The notes under the pieces were generated by a model. The model saw only the letters and a list, made by a program, of their open reading frames with translations, was not told the DNA's origin and did not search any database. The position numbers and the translations under genes are program-made. From Bacteroidota bacterium (GTDB lineage: Bacteria > Bacteroidota > Bacteroidia > 2-12-FULL-35-15), in the NCBI GenBank assembly GCA_025963715.1, contig JAOQAG010000024.1, forward strand, positions 1,155 to 65,154: a DNA stretch of 64,000 nt. Direction: 5' to 3'. Positions 4,233 to 57,980 of the stretch are shown here, in pieces. Position 1 is the first letter of the stretch. Each line of letters opens with the position of its first letter.

Positions 4233-6680
4233 TTACCGGATCTCTGCTCCTGCTTTTTCCTGGTACGTTTTCATCAATTTTTCCATGATCTTTTCGATCT
4301 GCTTATCAGTAAGCGTGGCGTTTTCATCCTGAATGATAAAGCTGAGCGCATACGATTTTTTTCCGGCCGGTAATTTATCACCTTCATACACATCAAACAA
4401 ATTCACGCTTTTCAGCAATGCTTTTTCCGATTGATATGCCAGTTGTTCCAATTGCTCAAACTTCACCGCTTTATCGATCAGCAAAGCCAGATCGCGTTTT
4501 ACTTCCGGGAATTTAGGAACTTCGGTATACATCAGCGCTTTCCCTTTTTTCACAGCTTCCAAAATCAAATCCCAGTTAAAATCGGCATAAAAAACCTCAT
4601 TTTTAATATCCATTGATTTTAACACTGTTTTTGAAACCGCACCAAATTCCACGATTGTTTTTTTATTCCAGGCATAGGACAATCCTGCCGAAAACAGATC
4701 GGAGCTGATCTCATTCATTTTCACATCAATTCCTAATCGTTCCAACACGGCATTTACAGCGCCTTTCAGCGAATAAAAACTAACCGCATCATTTTTCGCA
4801 TTCCAGCTTTCTTCGGTTTTCCGTCCGCTTACAAACAACGATAAATGTTTTGTTTCCACATATTTTACCGGCTCGCCTTTCACCGCCATGTACGTTTTCC
4901 CAAATTCATACAATTTCAGATCGGCACTTTTGCGGTTTTGGTTGTACGCAATAATTTCCAGTCCACTGAACAATAGCGATTGTCTCAACACATTCAAATC
5001 GCTACTCAATGGATTCAGCATTTTTACATTGTGCTCCGGGTTGATGCTTTTTACTTTCAAGGAATATTCTTCTTTCGTCAGCGATAAATTCATCATCTCC
5101 GAAAAGCCATTATTACTGAGTAGATCTGCGATCGCATTCTGAATTTTTTCTTTGTCCGGTTTTTCTGAAAACGACAGCGATGAATTTAATGCCGTTGGGA
5201 TTTCAATATTATTATAACCGTAAATGCGCAATACTTCTTCGATCACATCCTGTTCGCGCGTTACATCCACTTTAAACGGCGGAATGGAAAGCAGCAATGC
5301 ATCATGTCCTTCATGTTCAATATCGATCCCGAGCGATAGAATTATTTTTTTGATGATCTCCAGATCAATGTGTTTTCCGATCAGGCGATCACATTTTTCA
5401 AATGAAAAAGGCACTTTGAAATTCTCCACTTTTTTCGGATACAGATCAATGATCTCCGACGAAATTTCGCCACCTGCAATTTCTTTGATCAGCAATGCCG
5501 CACGTTTTAATGCATACACCGTCATGTTCGGATCCGTTCCGCGCTCAAAACGAAAAGATGCATCTGTTTTTAAACCGTGTCGTTTTGCAGATTTACGAAC
5601 CGAAGTGGAATTAAAATATGCACTTTCCAGGAAAATATTCGTTGTATTTTCCGATACACCTGATTCCATTCCGCCAAATACACCGGCAATACACATCCCG
5701 CCTTCTGCATCGCAGATCATCAGATCTTCGGAAGATAATTCGCGTTCGGTTTCGTCCAGCGTTTTAAATTTGGTTTTATCTGCGAGCTTTTTCACGATTA
5801 CTTTACCGCCTTTGATTTTATCTGCATCAAATGCATGCATCGGTTGCCCCAGCTCGTGCAATACATAATTGGTAATGTCCACAATGTTATTGATCGGGCG
5901 GATGCCAATCGTTTTCAGCCTGTTTTTGATCCATTCCGGCGATTCAGCTACTTTTACATTGCTGATACTCAGGCCCGAATAACGCGGACAAGCGATCGGA
6001 TCTTCCACTGTTACTTCAATTTTCGAGGATGTGTTATCAACGCGAAAAGCCTCTACATCCGGCAATTGCAGCATTAAATGTTCTCCACCGGATATTTCAT
6101 GTGTATTTAATACCGCCACCAGGTCGCGCGCCACACCCACATGCGAAGCCGCATCTGCACGGTTGGGCGTTAACCCGATCTCGATCGTATAATCTTCTTC
6201 TATTTTAAAATATTCTTTCGCCGGTGTGCCCGGGATCGCATCTGCATCCAGCACTATAATGCCTGCATGTGAAGTTCCAAGTCCGATCTCATCTTCCGCA
6301 CAGATCATTCCTTCGGAAACTGCACCGCGGATCTTCGATTTTTTAATTTCAAACGGTTCTCCCGTTGCCGGATATAATTTAGCGCCCACCGTAGCGATCA
6401 CCACTTTTTGTCCAGCTTCCACATTGGCCGCACCGCAAACGATGTGCAGCAATTCACCGGTTCCGATATCTACGGTCGTTAAATTCAAACGGTCGGCATC
6501 CGGGTGTTTTTCCTTGGTTTTTACTTCACCCACAACCATACCTTCCAAACCGCCTTTCACCGTTTCTGCTTTTTCAATGCTTTCCACTTCCAGGCCGCAG
6601 CCTGTCAGGAGTTTTCCTGCTTCTTCCGGCGACAAATCGGTTTTAACGTACTCTTTCAGCCAATTATATGAGATTTTCAT
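4233..6680 (-). CDS. pheT: phenylalanine--tRNA ligase beta subunit
   Basis: 815 aa with N-terminus MKISYNWLKEYV. The tRNA-binding, B3/B4 and FDX-ACB-like regions are recognisable. Confidence 0.95.
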   Translation of the reverse strand: MKISYNWLKEYVKTDLSPEEAGKLLTGCGLEVESIEKAETVKGGLEGMVVGEVKTKEKHPDADRLNLTTVDIGTGELLHIVCGAANVEAGQKVVIATVGAKLYPATGEPFEIKKSKIRGAVSEGMICAEDEIGLGTSHAGIIVLDADAIPGTPAKEYFKIEEDYTIEIGLTPNRADAASHVGVARDLVAVLNTHEISGGEHLMLQLPDVEAFRVDNTSSKIEVTVEDPIACPRYSGLSISNVKVAESPEWIKNRLKTIGIRPINNIVDITNYVLHELGQPMHAFDADKIKGGKVIVKKLADKTKFKTLDETERELSSEDLMICDAEGGMCIAGVFGGMESGVSENTTNIFLESAYFNSTSVRKSAKRHGLKTDASFRFERGTDPNMTVYALKRAALLIKEIAGGEISSEIIDLYPKKVENFKVPFSFEKCDRLIGKHIDLEIIKKIILSLGIDIEHEGHDALLLSIPPFKVDVTREQDVIEEVLRIYGYNNIEIPTALNSSLSFSEKPDKEKIQNAIADLLSNNGFSEMMNLSLTKEEYSLKVKSINPEHNVKMLNPLSSDLNVLRQSLLFSGLEIIAYNQNRKSADLKLYEFGKTYMAVKGEPVKYVETKHLSLFVSGRKTEESWNAKNDAVSFYSLKGAVNAVLERLGIDVKMNEISSDLFSAGLSYAWNKKTIVEFGAVSKTVLKSMDIKNEVFYADFNWDLILEAVKKGKALMYTEVPKFPEVKRDLALLIDKAVKFEQLEQLAYQSEKALLKSVNLFDVYEGDKLPAGKKSYALSFIIQDENATLTDKQIEKIMEKLMKTYQEKAGAEIR

Positions 6681-13863: not shown

Positions 13864-14021
13864 GTATTTTAATTTTTTTAATATCACAAATATAGCCAAT
13901 AGAGAATGGTAGAACTATTAATATTTTCAACACTTTTAACACAGAGGGCACAGAGGTTTTAGAGCTTCACGGAGAAGAGTTTTTATATAAAAAAATATTA
14001 ATAAAAACTACACTAAGATTA

Positions 14022-14170
14022 ACACACCCCTAACCCCTCTCAAGAGGGGAATGCATCCTGCAAGCATTTGGAATATATTATTATTTTGTAATTTTCTTAA
14101 AAACTATATTTTACAATTTCAGAAGAATGATTCAGTTCCCCTCTTGAGAGGGGTTAGGGGTGTGTTCTGC
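14022..14170. repeat. MITE-like unit: inverted copies of cccctcttgagaggggttaggggtgtg (family A') flanking an ~85-bp AT-rich core
   Basis: Arms at 14022-14058 and 14144-14170. A single further copy sits at 30977-31012. Confidence 0.65.
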
Positions 14171-14202
14171 ATATAGCATAAGCACTGCATCTGCGCACAG
14201 CA

Positions 14203-14240
14203 AAACTTTGAACTTTTGAACTTTAAACTTTGAACTTTTT
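14203..14240. repeat. short tandem aactttgaactttaaactttgaac element (family E)
   Basis: Copies at 30819-30853, 57757-57800 and 57937-57980. Confidence 0.7.
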
Positions 14241-24211: not shown

Positions 24212-24336
24212 TTGGTGTTTAACCGCAGAGAACGCTAAGGAGGCGCAGAGTTCGCGGAGGCTGGAATTAAAAATTAATTGAAATCGGAAAGTTTATACCA
24301 GGCTTATAACTATTTAATTGAAAAAACCTTAATTTG

Positions 24337-24431
24337 TGCGTCATTGCGAGGGCTTTTCGCCCGAAGCAATCTCATACCAGAATATAAACTAGAGTGAGAT
24401 TGCTTCGGGCGAAAAGCCCTCGCAATGACGT
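24337..24431. repeat. long near-perfect inverted repeat, family C (gcgtcattgcgagggcttttcgcccgaagcaatctca ... tgagattgcttcgggcgaaaagccctcgcaatgacg)
   Basis: ~37-bp arms with a ~20-bp loop. A second, near-identical copy lies at 36299-36393. A related element (ctccgctcgaaatgacag) lies at 54819-54907. Confidence 0.85.
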
Positions 24432-24487
24432 TCTTAAAATAATTTATTTTCATGGTGCAAAGTTTCGGATACTCACTAAAAATTAAA

Positions 24488-24582
24488 CCACATAAGGCAC
24501 AAAGAACACATAGGTTCTACATGTTAAGTACTACATTTTTACGCCTCGCCTTATGTGCTCTTTGTGCCTTATGTGGTAGAAA
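24488..24582. repeat. inverted repeat, family D (ccacataaggcacaaagaacacataagg ... ccttatgtgctctttgtgccttatgtgg)
   Basis: Single-arm copies at 35802-35835 and 57662-57695. Word-variants cactaag/cactgag at 57527-57640 and 57890-57912. Confidence 0.8.
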
Positions 24583-24639: not shown

Positions 24640-24935
24640 AAATGACAGGAGTCGGACACTGGCGCCGGTGATAATTTCACCTTGGTGCTACAGCCGCCTT
24701 CACTACTTCGTCTTTGTGATAGGAGAGTGATAAGATCACAATTTCCGCACGCACATTCATCTTTTTTTCTTTAATTGCCTGAGGGTCTTGAATGATGGGT
24801 TTTGAAACACCATAACCTTTTGTTTTGAGCCTGCCCGGATCAATTCCTTTTTTAATAAGATACTTTGCAATTGCAGCTGCGCGCCTTTGCGAAAGCTACA
24901 CCAGGGTAATCCACCCGTTCCGGCTCAACTCTTTT
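24640..24935 (-). pseudogene. remnant of an OmpA-family C-terminal (peptidoglycan-binding) domain, interrupted by stop(s)
   Basis: Minus-strand translation gives ...LSQRRAAAIAKYLIKKGIDPGRLKTKGYGVSKPIIQDPQAIKEKKMNVRAEIVILS..., an OmpA_C signature. It has an in-frame stop just upstream (...NGWITLV*) and no intact N-terminal part. Confidence 0.4.
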
Positions 24936-25084: not shown

Positions 25085-25795
25085 CTAGCCTTTATCAAAA
25101 TTATAATAGCTATAATCCTGCAGCACTGTATATAAAAACTGGGAAGGCGGCACATTGGTGGTAATCCCCATCGTATCTTTTGTTTTCATAAAAAGCTTAT
25201 CGATGGCTTCTGTGTTGTTGGTTTGTACGCTGATGCGCATTACCTCCTTAATAATAGCAACATCATTATCCGAAAGGCGCGACACTTCCGGGAATACAAC
25301 AGTATATTCGGGTTTTACTTTATTTAAGATCGTATCGCTCAGCTGCACCCGTTGTTTCATTTTTATAACAGTTGTACCGGCAGCAAGGTCGCCGAGGCGC
25401 TGCCCCTTGCCATTTACAACAATGGTAATGAGCGCTACTGATCCGGAAACGAGGCTGATATCAACGATCCGGAAAAGCCAGCGTAGCAGGTACCCGCCAA
25501 AGCCGGTGCGGGAACCGTCTATTTTTACTACTTTAATTTTAAGGATCATTTTGCCAAATGATCTTCCGTTAAAAAAGGTTTCGCAAAGCAGGTGATAAAA
25601 AGCGAGGGGCAAAAATAAAAGGAGGCCAAGCGGACCCCAGTGGCGTCCTATTACTCCAATTATAAACAAAGCGATAAGAGCGTAAGCAAAAAAGAATGAA
25701 TAATCTATTAAGGAAGCCAGGAGGCGATCTCCAACACTTGCAACTTCATATTCTATATCAACGTTTTGGGTAGTTTGTATGCGAATGTTATCCAT
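25085..25795 (-). CDS. RDD family membrane protein
   Basis: RLLASLIDYSFFFAYALIALFII...FNGRSFGKMILKIKVVKIDGS is the RDD-domain signature. Confidence 0.8.
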   Translation of the reverse strand: MDNIRIQTTQNVDIEYEVASVGDRLLASLIDYSFFFAYALIALFIIGVIGRHWGPLGLLLFLPLAFYHLLCETFFNGRSFGKMILKIKVVKIDGSRTGFGGYLLRWLFRIVDISLVSGSVALITIVVNGKGQRLGDLAAGTTVIKMKQRVQLSDTILNKVKPEYTVVFPEVSRLSDNDVAIIKEVMRISVQTNNTEAIDKLFMKTKDTMGITTNVPPSQFLYTVLQDYSYYNFDKG

Positions 25796-25941
25796 CTGAA
25801 AAAATGCTTCTGAAATTTTTAATCGTTCATAAAAATAACCATTTCAGGGAATTATCATGAATTATTTTTTGATGATTATTTTACTTAAATTTACAACGCT
25901 ATTTTTGGCTACTCATCAGGAAACTTACCGGGACAACAAAA

Positions 25942-26919
25942 TTGAAGGAAATTACATTTTTAAATCAAAATGTCAGCAAATGGCAACAGTTTGAAACACT
26001 GATCACCCGGAAAGGAGCTACGGATCCTGATCTGATGGCGGATCTGTTCATACAGCTTACCGACGATCTTTCCTACTCCAAAACACATTATCCGAAATCA
26101 AAAACCACGCAGTACTTAAATGCTATTGCGGCCAAAGTGCACCAGGAGATCTATAAAAACAAAAAGGAGAAAAAAAGCCGCATTGTTACCTTCTGGAAAT
26201 ACGAACTGCCTTTTATTTTCAAAAATTCACACAAACAACTGGGATATGCTGCGCTTATCTTTTTTATTGCGTTACTGATCGGCATTGTTTCCGCAGCTTA
26301 TGATGATACGTTTATACGGCTGATCCTGGGCGACGGTTATGTAAATCAAACCATTGAGAACATTAACAAAGGTGATCCGATGGCCATTTATAAAAGCGCC
26401 GGACAGGTAAATATGTTTTTTGGAATTACGATCAACAATATTTATGTTGCTTTTTTATGTTTTATTTTCGGGATCATCTTTTCGCTGGGAACGGGATATA
26501 TGTTATTTACGAATGGTGTAATGCTGGGCGCTTTTCAATATTTTTTCTATTCAAAAGGTTTATTAGCGCAATCCATGCTGGTGATCTGGATCCATGGCAC
26601 ACTGGAAATTTCGGCGATCATTATTGCGGGTTGTGCCGGGCTAACCATGGGAAACAGCTTTTTATTCCCGGGAACATATTCGCGCGGGGTATCGTTTATT
26701 AAAGGCGCCAAACAAGGGTTAAAAATTGCGATAGGCCTGGTTCCTGTATTTATTACTGCCGGATTTTTAGAGAGCTTTGTAACACGTTATACGCAAATGC
26801 CTGTCTGGCTAAGCTTATCGATCATCTTTACATCCTTATTTTTTATTATCTGGTACTTTATTATTTACCCGATCCGGTTAAATAAAAAGGCGCTTCCATC
26901 TGCAGACTTACACAATTAA
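25942..26919 (+). CDS. SpoIIM-like (DUF95) stage-II-sporulation-protein-M family membrane protein
   Basis: N-terminal soluble part plus 6 TM helices with the DUF95 pattern (FFIALLIGIVSAAYDD..., GTLEISAIIIAG). Confidence 0.7.
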   Translation: MKEITFLNQNVSKWQQFETLITRKGATDPDLMADLFIQLTDDLSYSKTHYPKSKTTQYLNAIAAKVHQEIYKNKKEKKSRIVTFWKYELPFIFKNSHKQLGYAALIFFIALLIGIVSAAYDDTFIRLILGDGYVNQTIENINKGDPMAIYKSAGQVNMFFGITINNIYVAFLCFIFGIIFSLGTGYMLFTNGVMLGAFQYFFYSKGLLAQSMLVIWIHGTLEISAIIIAGCAGLTMGNSFLFPGTYSRGVSFIKGAKQGLKIAIGLVPVFITAGFLESFVTRYTQMPVWLSLSIIFTSLFFIIWYFIIYPIRLNKKALPSADLHN

Positions 26920-26939
26920 AAAGTAAAATAACTAACCAC

Positions 26940-27893
26940 ATGAACCAGGAAAAGATCAATTATAGAGTAGCACGGGATTTTGGAGAAACATTTAATATTT
27001 CTATAAAATTCTTACGGCAGAATTTTAAATTATTTTTCCAATCGGTTGTTTTTATAGCCGGTCCGTTCTTATTATTAAGCGCTATTGCCAGCGCCTTTTA
27101 CCAGGCGGATGCACTAGCCCAGTTATCAACCGGCCGTGCAAATATATTTGCACAGTTCGGGACGATGTATTTTGTTTATTTAATTGCTGCATCTTTTTCC
27201 AATCTTGCACTTACAGGAACTGTTTTTGCATACATGCTGGTTTATTCGGAAAAAGGTCCGGGCAATTTTTCGGTAAACGATGTTGCCCGAAGATTATGGG
27301 CGAGTGCCGGTGGACTGATCATTGTATTTTTATTATTTACTTTTTTAATAGGACTTGCTGTGGGGTTCCTGGTGATTGTTTTTGCGGGTGTTATACAAAG
27401 CTCCCCGGTTTTGGCTGTTCTTTTAGGACTTTGTTTGTTTGTGGGAATGCTTCTGTTGATGCCACCTCTGATCTGGCAGTTAAGCGTTGTTTATCTTGTT
27501 AAAATGCAGGACAATGACATTCCTTTTGATGCATACGGCAAAACACGCCAGGTGATGAAAGGTAATTACTGGCGCACCTGGCTTCTTACCGTTTGTACAT
27601 TTCTTACCATAGGAATTGCATCTTTTGCATTTGCGATCCCACAGGCCGTTTACAGGTGGATCGTTATGTATACTGCCGCCAGGCAAGGCGGCAGCATGGG
27701 AGAAACGTCTGTCACTTTCCTGATCATTGTAACCCTTTGCACATTTGGCACTACACTTATTTATTCGGTGCTGTATGTTATTTCCGGTTTTCATTATTAC
27801 AGCCTTGCGGAGAAAAAAGACGGAGCGGGCTTGATGGAACGCATTAATGAGATCGGACAAAAGCCTGTAAACAATGTGGAACAGCAGTATTAA
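26940..27893 (+). CDS. polytopic membrane protein, unknown function
   Basis: About 6-7 hydrophobic helices. It is conserved in position between the SpoIIM-like and DUF4129 genes. No motif recognised. Confidence 0.55.
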   Translation: MNQEKINYRVARDFGETFNISIKFLRQNFKLFFQSVVFIAGPFLLLSAIASAFYQADALAQLSTGRANIFAQFGTMYFVYLIAASFSNLALTGTVFAYMLVYSEKGPGNFSVNDVARRLWASAGGLIIVFLLFTFLIGLAVGFLVIVFAGVIQSSPVLAVLLGLCLFVGMLLLMPPLIWQLSVVYLVKMQDNDIPFDAYGKTRQVMKGNYWRTWLLTVCTFLTIGIASFAFAIPQAVYRWIVMYTAARQGGSMGETSVTFLIIVTLCTFGTTLIYSVLYVISGFHYYSLAEKKDGAGLMERINEIGQKPVNNVEQQY

Positions 27894-28605
27894 AACTTTT
27901 TATTTTTTCATTTCCATCCTGTTATACATGTTTTTGTACAGCACAAGATCCTATTGTGCAACTGATCCTGTAAAAAAGATCGTGTATGATTCTTCCAAAG
28001 TGGAAGCCCGTTTTATTCCTGCGGAAAAGCAAAAGGAACTCCTGGATGACAGCGATTATAAATACGACCGGAACGGGCCGCAACCTGTTACTTTCTGGGA
28101 TCGTTTCTGGTCGTCGGTGCGAAAGCTTATCCGAAAAATGTTCAGGAGTAAAGGCGGTGTTGCTGGCGTTCACATCTTTGAATATGTGCTGATGGCAGCC
28201 GCTGTTGTATTGGTGGTGGTATTGTTATTAAAAAACAATGTGCGTGCATTGTTTTATGGAAAAAGCGCTCCCATTGCCATTGACTTTACGGAGCTTAAGG
28301 AAGACATTCACCAGATCAATTTTGATGAATTGATTGCCGAAGCCATTTCGAGAAAGGATTTTAGAAAAGCGATCCGCCTGCATTTTTTAAAATTACTGAA
28401 ACAACTCTCCGATAAAAATTTAATTGCCTGGCAGCTGGATAAAACCAACATCGATTATTCCGTCGAATTATCGAAAAGCCAATACAGCAGTAAGTTTAAA
28501 GAAATAACATTTTTGTACGAATACATCTGGTACGGCGATTTTCAGATAAATGAAACGAGCTACGGATCAATGGTATTAAAATTTAAAGAATTTAAAATTT
28601 CGTGA
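27874..28605 (+). CDS. DUF4129 domain protein (transglutaminase-like, membrane-anchored)
   Basis: TM helix VLMAAAVVLVVVLLL, then DFRKAIRLHFLKLLKQLSDKNLIAWQLDKTN...EYIWYGDF, which is DUF4129-like. It overlaps the previous gene by 20 nt, and the true start may be a downstream Met. Its stop overlaps the next gene's GTG start (GTGA). Confidence 0.65.
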   Translation: MWNSSIKTFYFFISILLYMFLYSTRSYCATDPVKKIVYDSSKVEARFIPAEKQKELLDDSDYKYDRNGPQPVTFWDRFWSSVRKLIRKMFRSKGGVAGVHIFEYVLMAAAVVLVVVLLLKNNVRALFYGKSAPIAIDFTELKEDIHQINFDELIAEAISRKDFRKAIRLHFLKLLKQLSDKNLIAWQLDKTNIDYSVELSKSQYSSKFKEITFLYEYIWYGDFQINETSYGSMVLKFKEFKIS

Positions 28606-29822
28606 CCAAAGGAAACAGAAAATATATTATTGTGCTGGCACTCTGTTTCATCGGATTGATCACCATTCAGTTATTGGCTCCAAAACCAATCAACTGGAAC
28701 CTTTCGTATTCTAAAAAAGACAAGATCCCATACGGCACTTCTGCTTTGTACAATGTGCTTCCGGATCTGTTTCCGGGGCAGCAGATCACAGATGCATCCA
28801 TGCCGGTTTATAATACGCTGACCGAGAACAACACTGCTGCCGCTAATTATATTGTTATCAATGCGCTGTTCCAGGTTGATTCACTCGACATGCGCAACCT
28901 TTTTAATTTTGTAGAAAAAGGAAACAGCGCATTTATTGCAGCCAATGATTTTGAAGGTGTTTTTGCTGATTCATTAAAATTAGGTACCACTGATTTTAAT
29001 GATCTTAATTTAAAAAAGAAAAAAGATAACTCTGCAGTTAGCGCTATTTACAATTACCCCGGTATTAATTTTATCAATCCCGCTTTAAAGAACAATGACG
29101 GATACCAGTATACAAAATGTTTTGACAATGTTTGTTTCAGTTCTTTCGATACATCAAAAGCAACTGTTTTAGGAAATAATACAAGTGGCCGGATAAATTT
29201 TATTTCCATGAAGATCGGAAAAGGCACGATCTACATCAGCACTGTTCCCGAAGCATTTTGCAATTACAATGTGGTGCATGAAAAAAACCAGGATTATGCA
29301 AGTAAAGCGCTTTCGTATTTACCCTTACAGCCCATTATCTGGGATGAATATTACAAAGCAAATAACAAAGTCCGGGAAAGTATTTTAAGGGTGATCTTTA
29401 ATAATCCTGCATTATCCATGGCGTATTATATTTTGCTGTTTGCCCTGATTTGTTTTATGGTTTTTGCTGCAAAACGCAAGCAACGCATCATTCCGGTGAT
29501 AGAGCCATTGCAAAATACAACGCTGCAGTTTGTGGATATTGTAGGCTCTTTATATTATCAAACCAGGGATCATAAAAACATTGCGGATAAAAAAATAATT
29601 TACTTTTTAGAATATATCCGTACCGCATTCCAGGTAAAAACAAATGTATACGATGATGTTTTTATCAGGCGGATCTCTGATCTGTCGGGGATAGACGACC
29701 AGCAGGTAAAAGAATTATTCTATTATTTTTCGGAGATCGGCATTAAACAAACAATCACGCAACAGGAACTGATCAGGCTCAACAAAATGATCGGGGCGTT
29801 TCACAAACTAAACAAACGATAA
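28602..29822 (+). CDS. DUF4350 domain protein
   Basis: N-terminal TM anchor plus a large extracytoplasmic domain and a C-terminal TM. The architecture and position match DUF4350 in MoxR/DUF58 clusters. GTG start is coupled to the upstream stop. Confidence 0.65.
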   Translation: MTKGNRKYIIVLALCFIGLITIQLLAPKPINWNLSYSKKDKIPYGTSALYNVLPDLFPGQQITDASMPVYNTLTENNTAAANYIVINALFQVDSLDMRNLFNFVEKGNSAFIAANDFEGVFADSLKLGTTDFNDLNLKKKKDNSAVSAIYNYPGINFINPALKNNDGYQYTKCFDNVCFSSFDTSKATVLGNNTSGRINFISMKIGKGTIYISTVPEAFCNYNVVHEKNQDYASKALSYLPLQPIIWDEYYKANNKVRESILRVIFNNPALSMAYYILLFALICFMVFAAKRKQRIIPVIEPLQNTTLQFVDIVGSLYYQTRDHKNIADKKIIYFLEYIRTAFQVKTNVYDDVFIRRISDLSGIDDQQVKELFYYFSEIGIKQTITQQELIRLNKMIGAFHKLNKR

Positions 29823-29837
29823 TCAATTTATAAACAC

Positions 29838-30815
29838 ATGGAAGAAAATATTTTTCAAAACAGGGTTGATCTAAGCCGTTTACAGCAAGCCGTAAGCAGC
29901 ATTAAAAACGAAGTAAGCAAAATAATTGTCGGGCAGGATCAAATGATCGACTTATTAATTGCCGCTATTTTAGCCGATGGACATGTGCTGATAGAAGGTG
30001 TTCCGGGAGTTGCAAAAACGCTGACAGCAAAATTACTTTCCAAAACATTGTCTGTTGATTTTTCGCGGATCCAGTTCACACCCGACCTGATGCCTTCGGA
30101 TATTATCGGAACAAATGTGTACAATCTTAAAATATCGGATTTTGAATTTAAGCAAGGTCCTTTATTCTCCAATGTAATTCTGATCGATGAAATTAACCGT
30201 GCTCCTGCAAAAACACAATCCGCTTTGTTTGAAGCAATGGAGGAACGCCAGATCACCGTGGAAGGAAAAACCCACATACTTGCCGCTCCGTTTATTGTGC
30301 TTGCCACTCAAAATCCTATTGAGCAGGAAGGCACGTACCGTTTGCCGGAAGCGCAGCTCGACCGTTTTTTGTTTAAAATAGAAGTGGGTTATCCTTCACT
30401 GGAAGATGAAACAAAGATCATTTCGGATTTTCATCTCCGCAAGGATAAAAACGATATTACCATCATTAATGGTGTAATGAATACCGAAGATATAAAAAGC
30501 TACCGGGCGACTGTGAGCGAGATCCATGTGGAGGATCACCTGATCGGATACATTGCAAAAATAGTGAATCAAACACGTAACAATTCCTCTTTATACTTAG
30601 GCGCTTCGCCGCGTGCATCACTGGCAATACTTACCAGTGCAAAAGCAATTGCTGCTATGCGCGGACGCGATTTTGTAACACCGGATGATATTAAATTTGT
30701 TGCGACCGCCGTTTTAAAACACCGGATCATACTTACTCCTGAAAAAGAAATGGAAGGGATTACAACGAGTGAAGTGGTAAAACAGATCATCGAAAAGATA
30801 GAAGTGCCGAGATAA
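29838..30815 (+). CDS. MoxR-family AAA+ ATPase
   Basis: IVGQDQMIDLLIAAILADGHVLIEGVPGVAKT (Walker A) and LIDEINRAPAKTQSALFEAMEERQITV. Confidence 0.9.
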   Translation: MEENIFQNRVDLSRLQQAVSSIKNEVSKIIVGQDQMIDLLIAAILADGHVLIEGVPGVAKTLTAKLLSKTLSVDFSRIQFTPDLMPSDIIGTNVYNLKISDFEFKQGPLFSNVILIDEINRAPAKTQSALFEAMEERQITVEGKTHILAAPFIVLATQNPIEQEGTYRLPEAQLDRFLFKIEVGYPSLEDETKIISDFHLRKDKNDITIINGVMNTEDIKSYRATVSEIHVEDHLIGYIAKIVNQTRNNSSLYLGASPRASLAILTSAKAIAAMRGRDFVTPDDIKFVATAVLKHRIILTPEKEMEGITTSEVVKQIIEKIEVPR

Positions 30816-30818
30816 GGA

Positions 30819-31012
30819 AGTTCAAAGTTTAAAGTTCAAAAGTTCAAAGTTTGCTGTACGGATAACAAACAGGAACGAAACTGCGAATCTGTGCGTGAGG
30901 GAACCCGGATCAGACGGATGCTGCAGATCTTAACGGATTAAAAAACAGGATTACTGTTATAAAATTTGCAGGATCAAATTCCCCTCTTGAGAGGGGTTAG
31001 GGGTGTGTAATA
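30819..31012. repeat. repeat insertion block between MoxR and DUF58: family E (agttcaaagtttaaagttcaaa), family I (gataacaaacaggaacgaaac...cgaatctgtg), family A' (cccctcttgagaggggttaggggtgtg)
   Basis: Three different interspersed repeat families packed into an otherwise tight operon gap. Confidence 0.7.
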
Positions 31013-31088
31013 ACATACTTGTAAATTCATTTCTGCAGAGATAACAAAAAATAAAATTATTTAAATTACTATTATAAAACCATAAAGC

Positions 31089-32423
31089 GTGAAATCACTT
31101 TTTAAATCCCTTTACATTGCCAACCGCCTGTACTTTTTCCTCACGGCGGAAGTGGTATTGTTTGTACTCGGGTTTTTCTTTCCGCTGCTTTATAGCATTG
31201 CTCTTTACCTGACGGTGATCACTGCTGCTTTAATTGTGGTTGACTTTATTATTTTATTTTCAAACAAGAATGGATTTTTTGCCCGTCGCGATACGTACGA
31301 CAAACTTTCCAATGGCGATAAAAATTCGATCCAGCTTTTTGTAGAAAACAAATACATGTTCGCTGTAAAGATCAACGTGATCGATGAGCTGCCGTTTCAG
31401 TTCCAGTCGCGCAACATTTCATTTACACTGGCAGTTGAACCGGGCAAAAGCAAAACGCTTGAATATACTGTTATACCGGTAAAGCGTGGCGAGTATCATT
31501 TTGGCGCTATCAATATTTATGTAAAAAGTCCGGTTGGATTTATTGAAAAAAGGTACCGCTTTTCGCAGGACATGATGGTTCCGGTCTATCCTTCTTTTAT
31601 GCAAATGCGCAAGTACGAATTGCTTGCGATCTCCAACAGGCTAACCGATTCGGGATTAAAAAAAATCAGGAAAATAGGACGTAACAGTGAGTTTGATCAA
31701 ATAAAGGAATATGTTGCCGGTGATGATTACCGCACCATTAACTGGAAAGCCACTGCGCGTAAAAATAAATTAATGATCAACCAGTACCAGGATGAAAAAT
31801 CGCAGCAGGTGTATTCGGTTATTGATATGGGCCGCATCATGCGAATGCCGTTCGAAGGTTTAAGCTTGTTGGATTATGCCATCAACTCCAGCCTGGTGAT
31901 CTCCAACATTGCCATGCTTAAAAGCGATAAGGCGGGCATTGTAACGTTTTCAAACAAAGTGCAGTCGGTGCTGGTAGCTGATCGTAAAGGCGGACATTTA
32001 AACAAGATCCTTCAATTATTATACAATCAAAAAACGGGTTACCTGGAAAGTGATTACGAAAATTTATACCTCCATATCAAAACCCGCATCAATCAGCGAA
32101 GCTTGTTATTACTGTATACTAATTTTGAAAGCTTAGCGGGTTTACAACGCCAGATAAAATATTTGCGGCGGCTGGCAAAAGATCATTTACTGGTAGTGAT
32201 CTTTTTTGAAAATACAGAACTGCGCACGTATGTGGATAAACCTGCCGAAAGCACCGAAGAGATCTATGACAAGGTGATTGCGGAAAAATTTATTTATGAA
32301 AAAAAATTAATTACCCGTGAACTGGAAAAATATGGAATCCATACTATCTTAACCAGTCCGCAAAAACTCTCGGTAAATACCATTAATAAGTATTTGGAAT
32401 TAAAGATGCGTGGATTAATTTAG
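31089..32423 (+). CDS. DUF58 domain protein (MoxR partner, vWA-like)
   Basis: Two N-terminal TM helices. DDYRTINWKATARKNKLMINQYQDE is the DUF58 hallmark. Confidence 0.85.
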   Translation: MKSLFKSLYIANRLYFFLTAEVVLFVLGFFFPLLYSIALYLTVITAALIVVDFIILFSNKNGFFARRDTYDKLSNGDKNSIQLFVENKYMFAVKINVIDELPFQFQSRNISFTLAVEPGKSKTLEYTVIPVKRGEYHFGAINIYVKSPVGFIEKRYRFSQDMMVPVYPSFMQMRKYELLAISNRLTDSGLKKIRKIGRNSEFDQIKEYVAGDDYRTINWKATARKNKLMINQYQDEKSQQVYSVIDMGRIMRMPFEGLSLLDYAINSSLVISNIAMLKSDKAGIVTFSNKVQSVLVADRKGGHLNKILQLLYNQKTGYLESDYENLYLHIKTRINQRSLLLLYTNFESLAGLQRQIKYLRRLAKDHLLVVIFFENTELRTYVDKPAESTEEIYDKVIAEKFIYEKKLITRELEKYGIHTILTSPQKLSVNTINKYLELKMRGLI

Positions 32424-32431
32424 CCAGGAAC

Positions 32432-32929
32432 ATGGATTTCGAAGAAAAAAAGCCGAAGAAAAAACTCACACCTCAACAGGCGCTTATTAAAGGACAGGCG
32501 ACTTGTGCCTACCAGGAGCGCAGCCAGCAGGAAATGCGCGATAAGTTATATGAATGGGGCTTGTACAGTGAGGATGTGGAAAATATCATCGCAAGGCTGA
32601 TCACCGATAATTTTTTAAATGAGGAGCGTTTCGCGAAAGCATTTGCCGGCGGGAAATTCCGGATCAAAAAATGGGGAAGGGTAAAAATAAAGATCGAATT
32701 AAAAAAGCGGAAGATCTCGGATTACTGCATCCGCAAGGCAATGGAGGAAATTCCTGACAAGGAATATACAAAAACGATGAAAGAGGTGATCGCTAAAAAA
32801 TTAAGGGAAAACCCAAAAGGCAAGCAGCAGGTGCGCAATTACAAAGCGGCGCAATATGCTATTTCACGCGGTTTTGAAGGAGATCTGGTGTGGGATGTGC
32901 TGAGGGATCCGGACAATGAACAGGAATAA
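32432..32929 (+). CDS. recX: RecX-family regulatory protein
   Basis: Three-helix-repeat pattern (LTPQQALIKGQATCAYQERSQQEMRDKL...EDVENIIARL...EERFAKAF). It starts 9 bp after the DUF58 stop. No recA is adjacent. Confidence 0.65.
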   Translation: MDFEEKKPKKKLTPQQALIKGQATCAYQERSQQEMRDKLYEWGLYSEDVENIIARLITDNFLNEERFAKAFAGGKFRIKKWGRVKIKIELKKRKISDYCIRKAMEEIPDKEYTKTMKEVIAKKLRENPKGKQQVRNYKAAQYAISRGFEGDLVWDVLRDPDNEQE

Positions 32930-33068
32930 TTCTTTTGGTACAGATAACAAACAGGAACCAATCTACGAATCCGGGTGTAAACCGGGTACAAACAACTGAT
33001 CAGGAAAAAAGTTCAGAATGCTGCGATAGCCGGAATAAGCAGCAGGACGCTGCAAATTTACGGAAAGT

Positions 33069-33563
33069 CTACTTAATTTTTCCGGATCTCATCAACGAAT
33101 CAAGGCGCATGGATTGCGCTTTTTTATAGTTTGATACGCTTTTTGAATCGCTCCAGAAACCATCCGTTTTTTTTAGGTCTTCTTTATTAAGAACATAAAA
33201 TGAATAAACGAGAAGGCTTGTATTGCTTGCTGTTATTGTAGCATCAGGTGGGCTGATCCATGTAGCCGAAGAAAACTTCGCTTCATTATCCGTAATATCT
33301 TTCCCGTTCTTCAGTATTTTTAAACTTATGATTTTATGAAAGGAAGCTGTATCCAGGTAGAGGATCCCTTCTTTATTCATAACGTTTTTTCCTGCATTGT
33401 TGATGAGCGCGGGGTTGGTTGAGCCTACTACATAACACCAGCCCGAATAATCAGACGGTATTTCAATTTCTAATGGTGTGCTTTCTGATGCTTTTTTTTC
33501 CTTGCAAAAGGAAAAAAGCCCCAGTACAAAAAAGCCCAGGATAATGAATGTTGTTTTTTTCAT
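33069..33563 (-). CDS. lipoprotein, unknown function
   Basis: Signal peptide plus cysteine (LFSFCKEK). Confidence 0.5.
   Translation of the reverse strand: MKKTTFIILGFFVLGLFSFCKEKKASESTPLEIEIPSDYSGWCYVVGSTNPALINNAGKNVMNKEGILYLDTASFHKIISLKILKNGKDITDNEAKFSSATWISPPDATITASNTSLLVYSFYVLNKEDLKKTDGFWSDSKSVSNYKKAQSMRLDSLMRSGKIK
33103..33127 (+). terminator. candidate recX terminator (gcgcatggattgcgc + ttttttat), embedded in the 3' coding end of the convergent lipoprotein gene
   Basis: The hairpin and T-run are on the plus strand. The same bases encode ...KKAQSMRLDSL... on the minus strand. Confidence 0.45.
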
Positions 33564-34187: not shown

Positions 34188-35277
34188 ATGATTACTACAG
34201 ACCAACTAAAAGACCTTCGGGAGCGCACGGATGCGTTGAGGGGGCATCTTTGACGTCGACCGCAAATTACGGGAAATAGCCGAAGAAGAGGAAAAAGCAC
34301 TTGCTCCCAATTTCTGGGACAATCCTAAAAAAGCAGAAGAACTGCTGAAACAAACCAAGATCAAAAAAAACTGGACCAAGTCGTATGCTTCTTTAGCGGG
34401 CAGCATGGACGACCTGGAGCTGATGTATACTTTTTTTAAGGAAGGGGAAGCATCGGAAGAGGATGTGATGCAGCAATTTGGCCTTACAAGCACCTTGCTG
34501 GAAGAGATCGAGTTTAAGAACATGCTGAGCGGCAAGGAGGATATCCTGAGCTGCGTGGTGCAGATCAATGCCGGTGCCGGTGGTACCGAAAGCTGCGACT
34601 GGGCCGAAATGCTCATGCGCATGTACCTGATGTGGGGCGAAAAGAATGGATACAAGGTAAAAGAAACCGATCGCTCGGAAGGCGATGTGGCCGGAATTAA
34701 ATCGGTAACGCTGGAGTTTGAAGGCGATTATGCCTTTGGATATTTAAAAGGCGAAAACGGTGTACACCGCCTGGTGCGCATTTCCCCGTTTGATTCCAAT
34801 GCAAAACGGCATACGTCGTTTGCATCGGTGTATGCTTATCCGCTGATCGATGACACGATTGAGATCGATGTAAATCCCGGTGACCTGGAATTTGAAACGT
34901 TTCGCTCCGGCGGTGCGGGCGGACAAAATGTGAACAAGGTGGAAACGGCGGTACGACTGTATCACAAACCATCGGGTATCATCATCAAAAACCAGGAATC
35001 GCGCTCGCAATTGCAAAACAAAGAAAATGCGATCAAGTTATTGAAGTCGCAATTATTTGAAATTGAGCTGCGCAAACAACGCGAAGCGATTGATGCGATC
35101 GAAGGAAATAAAAAGAAAATTGAATGGGGATCTCAGATCCGTAATTATGTTTTTCATCCGTATAAACTGATCAAGGATGTGCGCACGGGTTACGAAACGT
35201 CCAATATACAGGCGGTGATGGATGGCGATCTCAAGGATTTTATAAAAGCGTATTTGATGGAGTATGGGAATAGTTAA
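34188..35277 (+). CDS. prfB: peptide chain release factor 2, expressed through a +1 programmed ribosomal frameshift
   Basis: Frame-0 [24 protein letters not shown] ends at an in-frame TGA inside AGGGGG CAT CTT TGA C (34239-34254). The +1 frame continues [14 protein letters not shown]... into the track ORF 34405..35277, which carries SPF and GGQ motifs. Confidence 0.9.
34239..34254 (+). other. prfB: prfB +1 frameshift site: internal SD-like AGGGGG, 3-nt spacer, slippery CUU, UGA, C
   Basis: Exact match to the canonical RF2 autoregulatory frameshift cassette. Confidence 0.85.
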
Positions 35278-48172: not shown

Positions 48173-48293
48173 AACATAACAGCAATTTTTTTTCATAAAA
48201 ACAATGTTTTTAACGCCTGGATTTTTAACAAAATTCCGGGCAAAAAAAGCACTCTTTCCTAAACAAATAAATCTTAAATTTGGGGTTCAAAAT

Positions 48294-48368
48294 TAACACA
48301 TCTAACATCTAACATCTAACATCTAACATCTAACATCTAACATCTAACATCTAACATCTAACATCTAA
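48294..48368. repeat. heptanucleotide microsatellite (CATCTAA)x~10, ending ~25 bp upstream of the fumC start codon
   Basis: Perfect tandem copies read directly. Confidence 0.9.
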
Positions 48369-48392
48369 TTACTAAATACTCAAGACTAAAAA

Positions 48393-57526: not shown

Positions 57527-57980
57527 TACCACTAAGGCACTAAGAACACTGAGCCCCCGCCCATTAACCACAAAAGAAAACAAAAGAAACAAAAGACGAA
57601 GCTAATATTTTACCACTAAGGCACTGAGGGCACTAAGGTTATTTCCCCCAGCCCCCGTCAACCACATAAGGCACAAAGAAACACATAAGGCGGGGCTTGT
57701 TAACCTGTGGTGTAGTGTATGATGTGTTTTAATAAATAATTAAATCGTCATCCGTACACAGCAAACTTTGAACTTTTTAACTTTAAACTTTGAACTTCTT
57801 TTGCCTTCGTGGCTTCGTGGTAAAAAAACCGCTCCGCAGGAACACACAGCATCCTTTTTATTTTGAATTTCCTCCCTTTTTCTTTCCCTTTCTTAGTGCC
57901 TTAGTGGTAAAAAATGATCGCGCAAGCGATCCACACAGCAAACTTTGAACTTTCCAACTTTAAACTTTGAACTTTTTATT
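57527..57980. repeat. dense repeat field in the feoA / mlaE divergent region: family D word-variants (accactaaggcactaag, accacataaggcacaaag) and family E (aactttgaactttaaactttgaac) x2
   Basis: Read directly. Confidence 0.75.

Follow-up and report, generated by a model that had tools for sequence, protein, structure and literature searches.

Gene clusters in which a MoxR-family AAA+ ATPase is encoded beside a DUF58 protein, a partner with a domain resembling von Willebrand factor A (vWA), and beside several membrane proteins are known from a number of described systems. They were compared here with a cluster of SpoIIM-like, p3, p4, DUF4350, MoxR, DUF58 and RDD-family genes from a Bacteroidota bacterium (GenBank assembly GCA_025963715.1, contig JAOQAG010000024.1, positions 1,155 to 65,154 of the forward strand). 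The window is this whole stretch of 64 kb, to which all coordinates refer and in which open reading frames (ORFs) were listed over 23-35 kb; p3 and p4 denote the two membrane proteins encoded between the SpoIIM-like and DUF4350 genes. The locus holds a copy of an inner-membrane system of seven proteins that is widespread and vertically conserved. The reading favoured here, which we consider moderately probable, is that MoxR and DUF58 drive the remodelling of a complex of the five other membrane proteins, with the downstream recX gene as a passenger and the repeat-filled gap between MoxR and DUF58 as a neutral insertion.

The closest archaeal system centres on arCOG01314 (DUF4350), which together with an AAA+ ATPase of COG0714 and a protein with Ig and vWA domains has been predicted to form a complex for secretion or membrane remodelling (Makarova et al. 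2015, PMC5898192); the same study describes bacterial SpoIIM homologs that adjoin vWA and COG0714 genes. The window cluster has the same triad of DUF4350, COG0714 ATPase and DUF58-type vWA protein (Ig-like plus vWA), and the archaeal DUF4350 proteins likewise consist of a signal anchor, a flavodoxin-like or GH42M-like ectodomain and a C-terminal transmembrane (TM) segment. The archaeal ATPase is of the MoxR-GvpN type, and the archaeal system adds S-layer and Ig-like proteins (arCOG02884 and others), whereas the window cluster instead has SpoIIM-like, RDD, DUF4129 and GPDPase_memb-like proteins.

Neighbouring genes of Mycobacterium chelonae with the annotations membrane protein, DUF4350, MoxR, DUF58, SpoIIM and RDD, which correspond to Rv3689 and Rv3691-Rv3695, were repressed together by log2 values of -6 to -8 (PMC8191103). 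This Rv3689-Rv3695 locus (moxR2 region; BB28_RS01875-01900) has the same gene content as the window, a match that rests on the annotation in that study and not on sequence comparison; its genes are adjacent and co-regulated, and it shares with the window cluster that it is uncharacterised. It differs in belonging to another phylum, in having SpoIIM (Rv3694c) on the opposite strand, and in having neither recX nor a repeat-filled gap. The SpoIIM-like Rv3694c and the RDD protein Rv3695 co-purify with the divisome protein Rv0954 (PMC8093794).

The MoxR-vWA-YebA operon (Bacillus subtilis yeaC-yeaD-yebA) has been read as a membrane-proximal degradation system (Zhang & Aravind 2012, PMC3495828) and likewise combines MoxR, DUF58 and a DUF4129-bearing membrane protein. 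However, YebA contains a catalytic transglutaminase-like (TGL) peptidase domain as well as some eight TM segments, whereas p4 lacks both and has only a TM segment and DUF4129, and the window cluster has four membrane proteins beyond those of that operon. The Bat operon (MoxR-DUF58-BatA-BatB-BatC-BatD-BatE) resembles the window in its MRP-type MoxR and DUF58 pair, its occurrence in Bacteroidota and its membrane-associated partners, but there MoxR comes first and is followed by the vWA proteins BatA and BatB and by tetratricopeptide repeat (TPR) proteins, whereas in the window MoxR-DUF58 comes last; no BatA/B-type VWA or TPR family was found in the cluster by Pfam search, and DUF58 is followed by recX and a convergent gene. 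B. subtilis SpoIIM, from the SpoIID-SpoIIM-SpoIIP (DMP) engulfment complex, is a polytopic membrane scaffold of the same PF01944 family; the window protein carries in addition a conserved domain (DUF8413) at its N-terminus, the organism does not form spores, and a Pfam scan of the cluster found no SpoIID or SpoIIP partner there. The MoxR/DUF58 genes of the M. smegmatis SigF regulon belong to a different cluster and were not used. An earlier first-pass annotation of this DNA had called the cluster functionally uncharacterised, and the literature searched indeed holds no functional test of DUF4350 or DUF4129.

Gene organisation of the cluster

The elements of the locus are as follows.

25085-25795, - strand: RDD-family membrane protein gene, 236 amino acids (ORF list and Pfam)
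25796-25941: divergent intergenic region, 146 bp (sequence)
25942-26919, + strand: SpoIIM-like polytopic membrane protein gene, 325 amino acids (ORF list and Pfam)
26940-27893, + strand: p3 polytopic membrane protein gene, 317 amino acids (ORF list; family via orthologs)
27874-28605, + strand: p4 gene (TM segment plus DUF4129), 243 amino acids (ORF list; family via orthologs)
28602-29822, + strand: DUF4350 bitopic membrane protein gene, 406 amino acids (ORF list and Pfam)
29838-30815, + strand: MoxR-family AAA+ ATPase gene, 325 amino acids (ORF list and Pfam)
30816-31088: spacer between MoxR and DUF58, 273 bp, with repeats A, B and C
31089-32423, + strand: DUF58 protein gene, 444 amino acids, GTG start (ORF list and Pfam)
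32432-32929, + strand: recX, 165 amino acids (ORF list and Pfam)
32938-32971 and 33102-33122, + strand: 3' end of the unit, with a copy of repeat B and then a terminator-like hairpin with a T-run

All ORFs named in the first-pass annotation were recovered with identical coordinates, and its description of a tightly packed operon-like unit, evolutionarily conserved, in which MoxR and its vWA-like DUF58 partner are joined by several membrane proteins, was borne out. The six junctions from the SpoIIM-like gene to recX measure +20, -20, -4, +15, +273 and +8 nt, and include the two overlaps reported earlier, 20 nt between p3 and p4 (27874-27893) and GTGA between p4 and DUF4350 (28602-28605), the first of which is also present in many close relatives according to the ORF coordinates of related loci. 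The earlier statement that gaps were 9 bp or less does not hold at the SpoIIM/p3 (20 nt) and DUF4350/MoxR (15 nt) junctions, although both are still short. At the 3' end, a gene at 33069-33563 (- strand) is convergent with the operon and lies opposite the terminator-like hairpin.

TAnnTTTG is the -7 consensus of Bacteroidota promoters, and a perfect box of this type, TATTTTTG, lies at 25900-25907 (+ strand), 35 nt before the start codon of the SpoIIM-like gene. It is the only intergenic + strand match upstream of the operon in a TAnnTTTG scan and probably marks the promoter of the operon. Base composition varies little along the region, and GC content is unremarkable. By exact protein identity the window corresponds to a soil Bacteroidota metagenome-assembled genome (locus tags JWP12_1900 to 1903; MCW3084534.1 and MCW3084538.1).

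Conservation across phyla

Related loci were found with a DUF4350 alignment and then searched with eight window proteins, giving a sample of 83 loci (80 on contigs from one genome per species and three on metagenomic contigs; numbered below with the prefix L). Presence counts were restricted to loci with enough flanking sequence, namely 69 for the core genes, 56 for RDD and 62 for recX.

p4 present: 69/69 loci
p3 present: 67/69 loci
SpoIIM-like present: 67/69 loci
MoxR immediately 3' of DUF4350: 63/69 loci
MoxR with DUF58 as the next gene: 61/69 loci
RDD divergent upstream: 36/56 loci with both flanks
RDD co-directional, immediately after DUF58: 15/56 loci
RDD not found: 5/56 loci

The order SpoIIM-p3-p4-DUF4350-MoxR-DUF58 was invariant across the 80 related genomes and three metagenome loci, with representatives in Bacteroidia, Cytophagia, Flavobacteriales, Marinilabiliaceae, Rhodothermales and Balneolaceae, as well as in Chlorobiota, Ignavibacteriota, KSB1, Latescibacterota, Spirochaetes and one metagenome-assembled genome (MAG) labelled Syntrophomonadaceae. 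Gene-neighbourhood conservation, proposed earlier as a check on the cluster, is therefore seen as the same order in more than 60 genomes of several phyla, which is more than chance would give. Stop and start codons of neighbouring genes in the unit frequently overlap. In most loci of Ignavibacteriota, KSB1, Latescibacterota and Spirochaetes the MoxR and DUF58 genes overlap by 4 nt (ATGA), an arrangement consistent with coupled translation and fixed stoichiometry of the two proteins.

The RDD gene lies on one side or the other of the unit in 51 of the 56 loci, and in Ignavibacteriota, KSB1, Latescibacterota and Spirochaetes it follows DUF58 on the same strand. Since this linkage is kept while side and strand change, RDD is best counted as the seventh component, in agreement with its earlier inclusion in the cluster. 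The components are thus SpoIIM-like, p3, p4, DUF4350, MoxR, DUF58 and RDD; TM segments are predicted by hydropathy in every component bar MoxR and RecX, so that six of the seven are membrane proteins and MoxR alone is soluble.

MoxR and DUF58

The earlier domain labels for RDD, SpoIIM, DUF4350, MoxR, DUF58 and RecX all score above Pfam thresholds, whereas DUF4129 holds at the level of the family, with the window copy below threshold. The MoxR protein matches AAA_3 (4.9e-64, 214.5 bits against a cut-off of 27) and AAA_lid_2 (2.7e-25, 88.3 bits), its Walker A (GVPGVAKT) and Walker B (LIDEINR) motifs are conserved across 70 orthologs, its nearest solved relative is PDB 2r44 (E=8e-83), and its partner gene, DUF58, is the next gene in the window. 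In L066 a separate MoxR paralog is 45% identical to the window MoxR, compared with 69% for the in-cluster copy; this paralog had been considered as the site of a canonical DUF58 for comparison of the metal-binding residues, but its neighbour encodes a Der/EngA GTPase.

A secondary match of MoxR to PF20030 bpMoxR (8e-13) raises the alternative of a threat-sensing or defence module like the MoxR-vWA-beta-propeller ternary systems or the Esr pathway, in which MoxR-vWA pairs are known to act (PMC7159879; bioRxiv 10.64898/2026.09.08.750141). However, no beta-propeller, kinase, forkhead-associated (FHA) or effector gene occurs in the cluster or its neighbourhoods, GC content is unremarkable, and the loci fetched keep one fixed order across phyla where defence islands are patchy and variable, so that a defence role is very improbable indeed. 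PADLOC likewise returned only generic AAA+ matches (DolB, 2e-8; IetA, 1e-5), and the defence reading was rejected.

The DUF58 protein matches PF01882 (1.2e-14, 54.5 bits against a cut-off of 23.4), and a profile search of PDB found no related solved structure at E<=1. Its AlphaFold2 model (mean predicted local distance difference test, pLDDT, 68) comprises a TM hairpin at residues 12-58, a confidently modelled beta-sandwich at 63-167 and an alpha/beta domain at 240-440. In Foldseek searches the sandwich matches the macroglobulin (MG, Ig-like) domains of complement C3 (E ~2e-7) and the alpha/beta domain matches the vWA domain of Rpn10 (8jtk_B, E=8.7e-6, 197 columns). At the expected positions of MIDAS, the metal ion-dependent adhesion site, the protein has D246-M-G248-R249-I250 after strand beta1 and T344-N345-F346 at the end of strand beta4, as against the canonical DxSxS and TDG, and G248, R249, M251, T344, N345, F346 and E347 are invariant across phyla. 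On the model, the vWA-like domain looks like a conserved variant without metal binding, and with the canonical MIDAS residues missing partner binding is probably not metal-mediated. The basic N-terminus followed by two TM segments suggests that the bulk of the protein lies in the cytoplasm, on the same side as MoxR.

Membrane components

The RDD protein has a Pfam RDD domain at residues 18-140 (3.4e-17, above the gathering score), followed by a tail of about 100 amino acids. The SpoIIM-like protein matches PF01944 (2e-36, 125.8 bits against a cut-off of 26.9), and its N-terminal domain of about 95 amino acids, predicted to be cytoplasmic, is highly conserved in the conservation profile; on SpoIIM-like orthologs this N-terminus is recorded as PF28475 DUF8413 in newer Pfam releases. 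The window copy of p3 has no Pfam match, and among 22 orthologs seven match GPDPase_memb PF10110 (best 3.6e-7), three UPF0259, three DUF4013 and two DUF7544; by these matches p3 belongs to the GPDPase_memb/UPF0259/DUF4013-like group of polytopic membrane proteins. The p3 gene is tandemly duplicated in L001 (5355-7283), L009 and L017, with the rest of the operon unchanged.

In p4 a central TM segment (about residues 94-120) is followed by DUF4129 at the C-terminus. The window copy falls below the PF13559 cut-off (E=0.017, 15.6 bits against 24.8), and since PF13559 is recognised at E<=0.01 in 25 of the 26 diverse orthologs scanned (best 1.5e-13), this copy is taken to be a divergent DUF4129 member. 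An exhaustive profile search placed the p4 family at 6,535 clusters at 50% identity.

The domain on p4 bears on a second alternative, by analogy with MoxR-vWA-YebA, in which the cluster would be a membrane-proximal degradation or quality-control system where DUF58 recruits, MoxR unfolds and a peptidase cleaves. DUF4129 sits C-terminal in YebA-like TGL proteins, and the MoxR and DUF58 pair is common to both systems. A degradation role has been predicted for MoxR-vWA-YebA (PMC3495828), but none of the seven proteins here has a peptidase domain, and a protease would need to act in trans. The earlier label of p4 as transglutaminase-like did not survive: Pfam finds no Transglut_core or TGL domain on p4 even at E<=10 and none on the other cluster proteins, and the best 150 relatives of the 6,535 clusters are all short stand-alone proteins of 143-320 amino acids; among these 150 no link to TGL fusion proteins appeared. 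Degradation by this machinery is decidedly unlikely, and in the reading favoured here the system, which encodes no peptidase, would remodel and not degrade.

The DUF4350 protein matches PF14258 (4e-13, 50.4 bits against a cut-off of 30.4) and has TM segments at about residues 6-30, as an N-terminal signal anchor, and about 268-292. Its AlphaFold2 model (pLDDT 70.6) shows the anchor, an alpha/beta ectodomain, the second TM segment and a well-modelled five-helix C-terminal domain; the ectodomain is predicted to be periplasmic and the helical tail cytoplasmic. Foldseek relates the ectodomain to the middle ('trimerisation') domain of beta-galactosidases of glycoside hydrolase family 42 (GH42; E ~6e-5), which independently reproduces the HHpred result of PMC5898192. 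The most conserved parts of the protein are the TM-proximal start of the tail, KRKQRIIPVI...LYYQ..HK, and WDEYYK just before the TM segment.

These features bear on a third alternative, a novel protein secretion system with the membrane proteins as its conduit and MoxR as its energy source. Secretion was proposed for the archaeal arCOG01314 (DUF4350/MoxR/vWA) systems, domains of the GldG type are distant relatives of the DUF4350 fold (both PMC5898192), and most components of the window cluster are membrane proteins. Against this, the S-layer and Ig-like secreted proteins that prompted the archaeal model are missing from the bacterial cluster, its neighbours vary and include no conserved cargo gene or outer-membrane component, and the DUF4350 protein has no NCBIfam match to GldG (TIGR03521) at E<=0.01, so that identity with GldG was rejected. 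No MoxR ATPase is known to drive translocation, and overall a secretion role is quite improbable. The envelope phenotypes suggested earlier for follow-up included gliding and the type IX secretion system (T9SS), but no link to either was found, as the DUF4350 protein lacks a GldG match and T9SS-type neighbours vary between loci.

Proposed mechanism

In the favoured reading of MoxR-DUF58-driven remodelling, DUF58 would be held at the cytoplasmic face of the membrane by its N-terminal TM hairpin, and its Ig-like and vWA-like domains would dock the MoxR hexamer. ATP hydrolysis by MoxR would then remodel, assemble or disassemble a complex of the five other membrane proteins, possibly through contacts with their conserved, membrane-proximal segments of predicted cytoplasmic location, namely the C-terminal helical tail of DUF4350 and the N-terminal domain of the SpoIIM-like protein. 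Such remodelling would alter the state of the periplasmic domain of DUF4350, whose fold is of an oligomerisation type, and the system as a whole would act in a chaperone-like manner on an envelope or membrane complex, perhaps at the division site or cell wall. The earlier description of the cluster as a membrane-protein maturation or quality-control machine is a reasonable hypothesis. Cell-wall or division-site remodelling is the most attractive specific role by analogy, although the link is weak, and is favoured because B. subtilis SpoIIM scaffolds wall hydrolases and because of the mycobacterial divisome co-immunoprecipitation.

Several observations weigh against this reading. Every mechanistic step is one that we infer, the cluster type has no experimentally characterised member, and the divisome link is a single co-immunoprecipitation list from a distant phylum. 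Both structural models are of moderate confidence (DUF58 pLDDT 68, DUF4350 71) and were built from shallow alignments, residues 173-238 of DUF58 are unmodelled yet form a highly conserved motif region, and the MIDAS positions were assigned from the model and motif position without a residue-level structural alignment. Topology comes from hydropathy and charge bias only, and that of p4 is ambiguous, with DUF4129 on either side of the membrane. MoxR and DUF58 do not adjoin the membrane genes in 6 of the 69 loci: in L007 (9436-13963) a SusC/SusD pair immediately follows DUF4350 in the usual place of MoxR-DUF58, and in L063 (6236-12143) only p4 and DUF4350 are kept, flanked by PMI, RsmH and SLT transglycosylase genes. 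Such exceptions indicate that the MoxR-DUF58 module is separable from the membrane module, and because p4 and DUF4350 are kept together even in L063, these two form the tightest pair.

recX downstream of the cluster

In the window recX starts 8 nt after the DUF58 stop codon and is probably co-transcribed with the operon; RecX HTH1, HTH2 and HTH3 score 33, 50.8 and 28.8 bits in Pfam, each against a cut-off of 26. The first-pass annotation had pointed to recX as an odd association with no recA nearby. The absence stands, as tblastn with Escherichia coli RecA found no recA in the 64-kb window or in the fetched flanks of the 83 loci, but the oddity does not: since recA is near none of the loci, a recX apart from recA is normal for the clade. 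Of 62 testable loci, 20 have the gene right after DUF58, and each of these is from a Bacteroidia MAG with a DUF4350 protein at least about 52% identical to that of the window. The gene does not follow DUF58 in the equally close L001, L010 and L017, nor in L035, L037 or any distant taxon, and lies 2.3 kb and 3.9 kb downstream in L011 and L032, respectively. In L002 a small reverse gene and then prfB lie downstream of recX, matching the window. On gene order, recX next to DUF58 is plain lineage synteny, a passenger of one Bacteroidia subclade that stands outside the system.

The prfB gene (release factor 2, RF2) of the window, at 34190-35277 (+ strand), has a programmed +1 frameshift site of the classical type, CTT TGA C, at 34248-34254: the ORF from the ATG at 34190 stops at the TGA, and the main part of the coding sequence is read in the +1 frame (ORF 34405-35277).

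Repeats between MoxR and DUF58

The first-pass annotation had described three interspersed repeat families in the 273-bp gap, and each of them does have further copies in the window.

30817-30857: repeat A; copies at 14203-14237, 57758-57798 and 57935-57974, 95-100% identity
30856-30889: repeat B; copy at 32938-32971, immediately after recX, 88% identity
30978-31008: repeat C; copies at 14022-14052 and 14136-14165, 100% identity

Repeat A consists of degenerate tandem units of about 7 nt, and repeat C forms a GC-rich hairpin (CCCCTC/GAGGGG). All copies outside the gap are intergenic, and the 340-bp spacer at 13900-14239, between two co-directional - strand genes, holds a C-C-A array, with two copies of C in inverted orientation plus A, a mosaic of the gap elements. 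No copy of A, B or C was found in the 83 related loci. Several close relatives nevertheless have MoxR/DUF58 spacers of 100-270 nt filled by different repeats of their own, with a period of about 7 nt, and in L014 one repeat element occurs at three junctions of the operon.

It had been suggested that the gap may carry an internal promoter or terminator and so alter operon stoichiometry. As an alternative to neutral insertion, the repeats would then be regulatory, uncoupling expression of DUF58-recX from the upstream genes through an internal promoter or partial terminator. At 273 nt the spacer is indeed the longest seen at this junction, where most distant taxa have the 4-nt overlap and 0-60 nt is typical of Bacteroidota. 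It contains two weak sigma-70-like matches (30938-30965 and 30987-31016) along with the GC-rich hairpin of repeat C, and its RNA fold z-score of -2.1 indicates modest predicted structure. However, no T-run follows the repeat C hairpin, a terminator scan found no intrinsic terminator in 30816-31088, the gap has no TAnnTTTG box, and the region as a whole yields 18 promoter-like matches, fewer than the 26 of shuffled sequence. A structured RNA or riboswitch was rejected, with no Rfam match in the gap at E<=1 and the weak matches all falling on an unrelated hairpin at about 24330-24540. The same repeats also lie between other co-directional genes, as at 13900-14239, and related genomes with their own different repeats at several operon junctions keep the gene order. 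An effect on stoichiometry, or on DUF58 and recX expression, is possible at most, and a regulatory role for the repeats is clearly unlikely. The simplest reading is that the gap consists of genome-specific repeats resembling repetitive extragenic palindromes (REP) or miniature inverted-repeat transposable elements (MITE), which would have been inserted in an ancestrally overlapping junction and tolerated there, and co-transcription across it is most likely intact.

Degenerate tandem repeats with units of about 7 nt occupy intergenic sites in this Bacteroidia clade; each genome has a family of its own, alike in architecture to those of the others and different in sequence. The units are GTTCAAA/GTTTAAA in the window, GGTCATT in L016, L026 and L044, GTAAAAG in L024 and GTTAATA in L014 and L020. 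The arrays often start immediately downstream of a stop codon, and one operon may carry them at several of its junctions; they are found at the MoxR-DUF58 junction in L008, L014, L016, L020, L024, L026 and L044, and the window has another at 48284-48388, as well as other families.

Adjoining sequence

Downstream of the RDD gene is an ORF-poor stretch of 935 bp containing a near-perfect long inverted repeat at 24329-24440, with arms of about 40 nt (GTCATTGCGAGGGCTTTTCGCCCGAAGCAATCTCA and its reverse complement). Its Rfam matches are all sub-threshold, for example BTnc060 with 36 bits against a gathering score of 229. At about 24650-24900 (- strand) a peptide resembling the OmpA C-terminal domain can be recognised by eye (LSQRRAAAIAKYLIKKGIDPGRLKTKGYG), with no ORF of at least 60 amino acids there, and this stretch may be a gene remnant.

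Significance

The cluster type was already known, and what the analysis adds is its delimitation to seven genes, with RDD included and recX left out, together with the separation of a tight membrane core (p4 and DUF4350) from the MoxR-DUF58 module, a concrete predicted topology and an invariant non-canonical MIDAS site. Wide conservation is seen in a gene order shared across distant phyla and in a p4 family of about 6,500 clusters at 50% identity, and the window itself holds an ordinary orthologous copy with two lineage-specific decorations, recX and the repeat gap. The delimited system is testable in tractable carriers, for example mycobacteria or cultured Cytophagia and Flavobacteriia.

More tentatively, and as a possibility that we hold to be doubtful, the cluster may encode an ancient envelope machine in which a MoxR ring, acting via a MIDAS-less vWA adaptor on a SpoIIM/RDD/DUF4129/DUF4350 scaffold, would control cell-wall or division-site remodelling across the phyla of the Fibrobacterota-Chlorobiota-Bacteroidota (FCB) group, Spirochaetes, KSB1, Latescibacterota and, per the literature, Actinobacteria. 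If true, this would provide a first function for five families now known only at the DUF level and would establish a non-metal mode of MoxR-vWA coupling.

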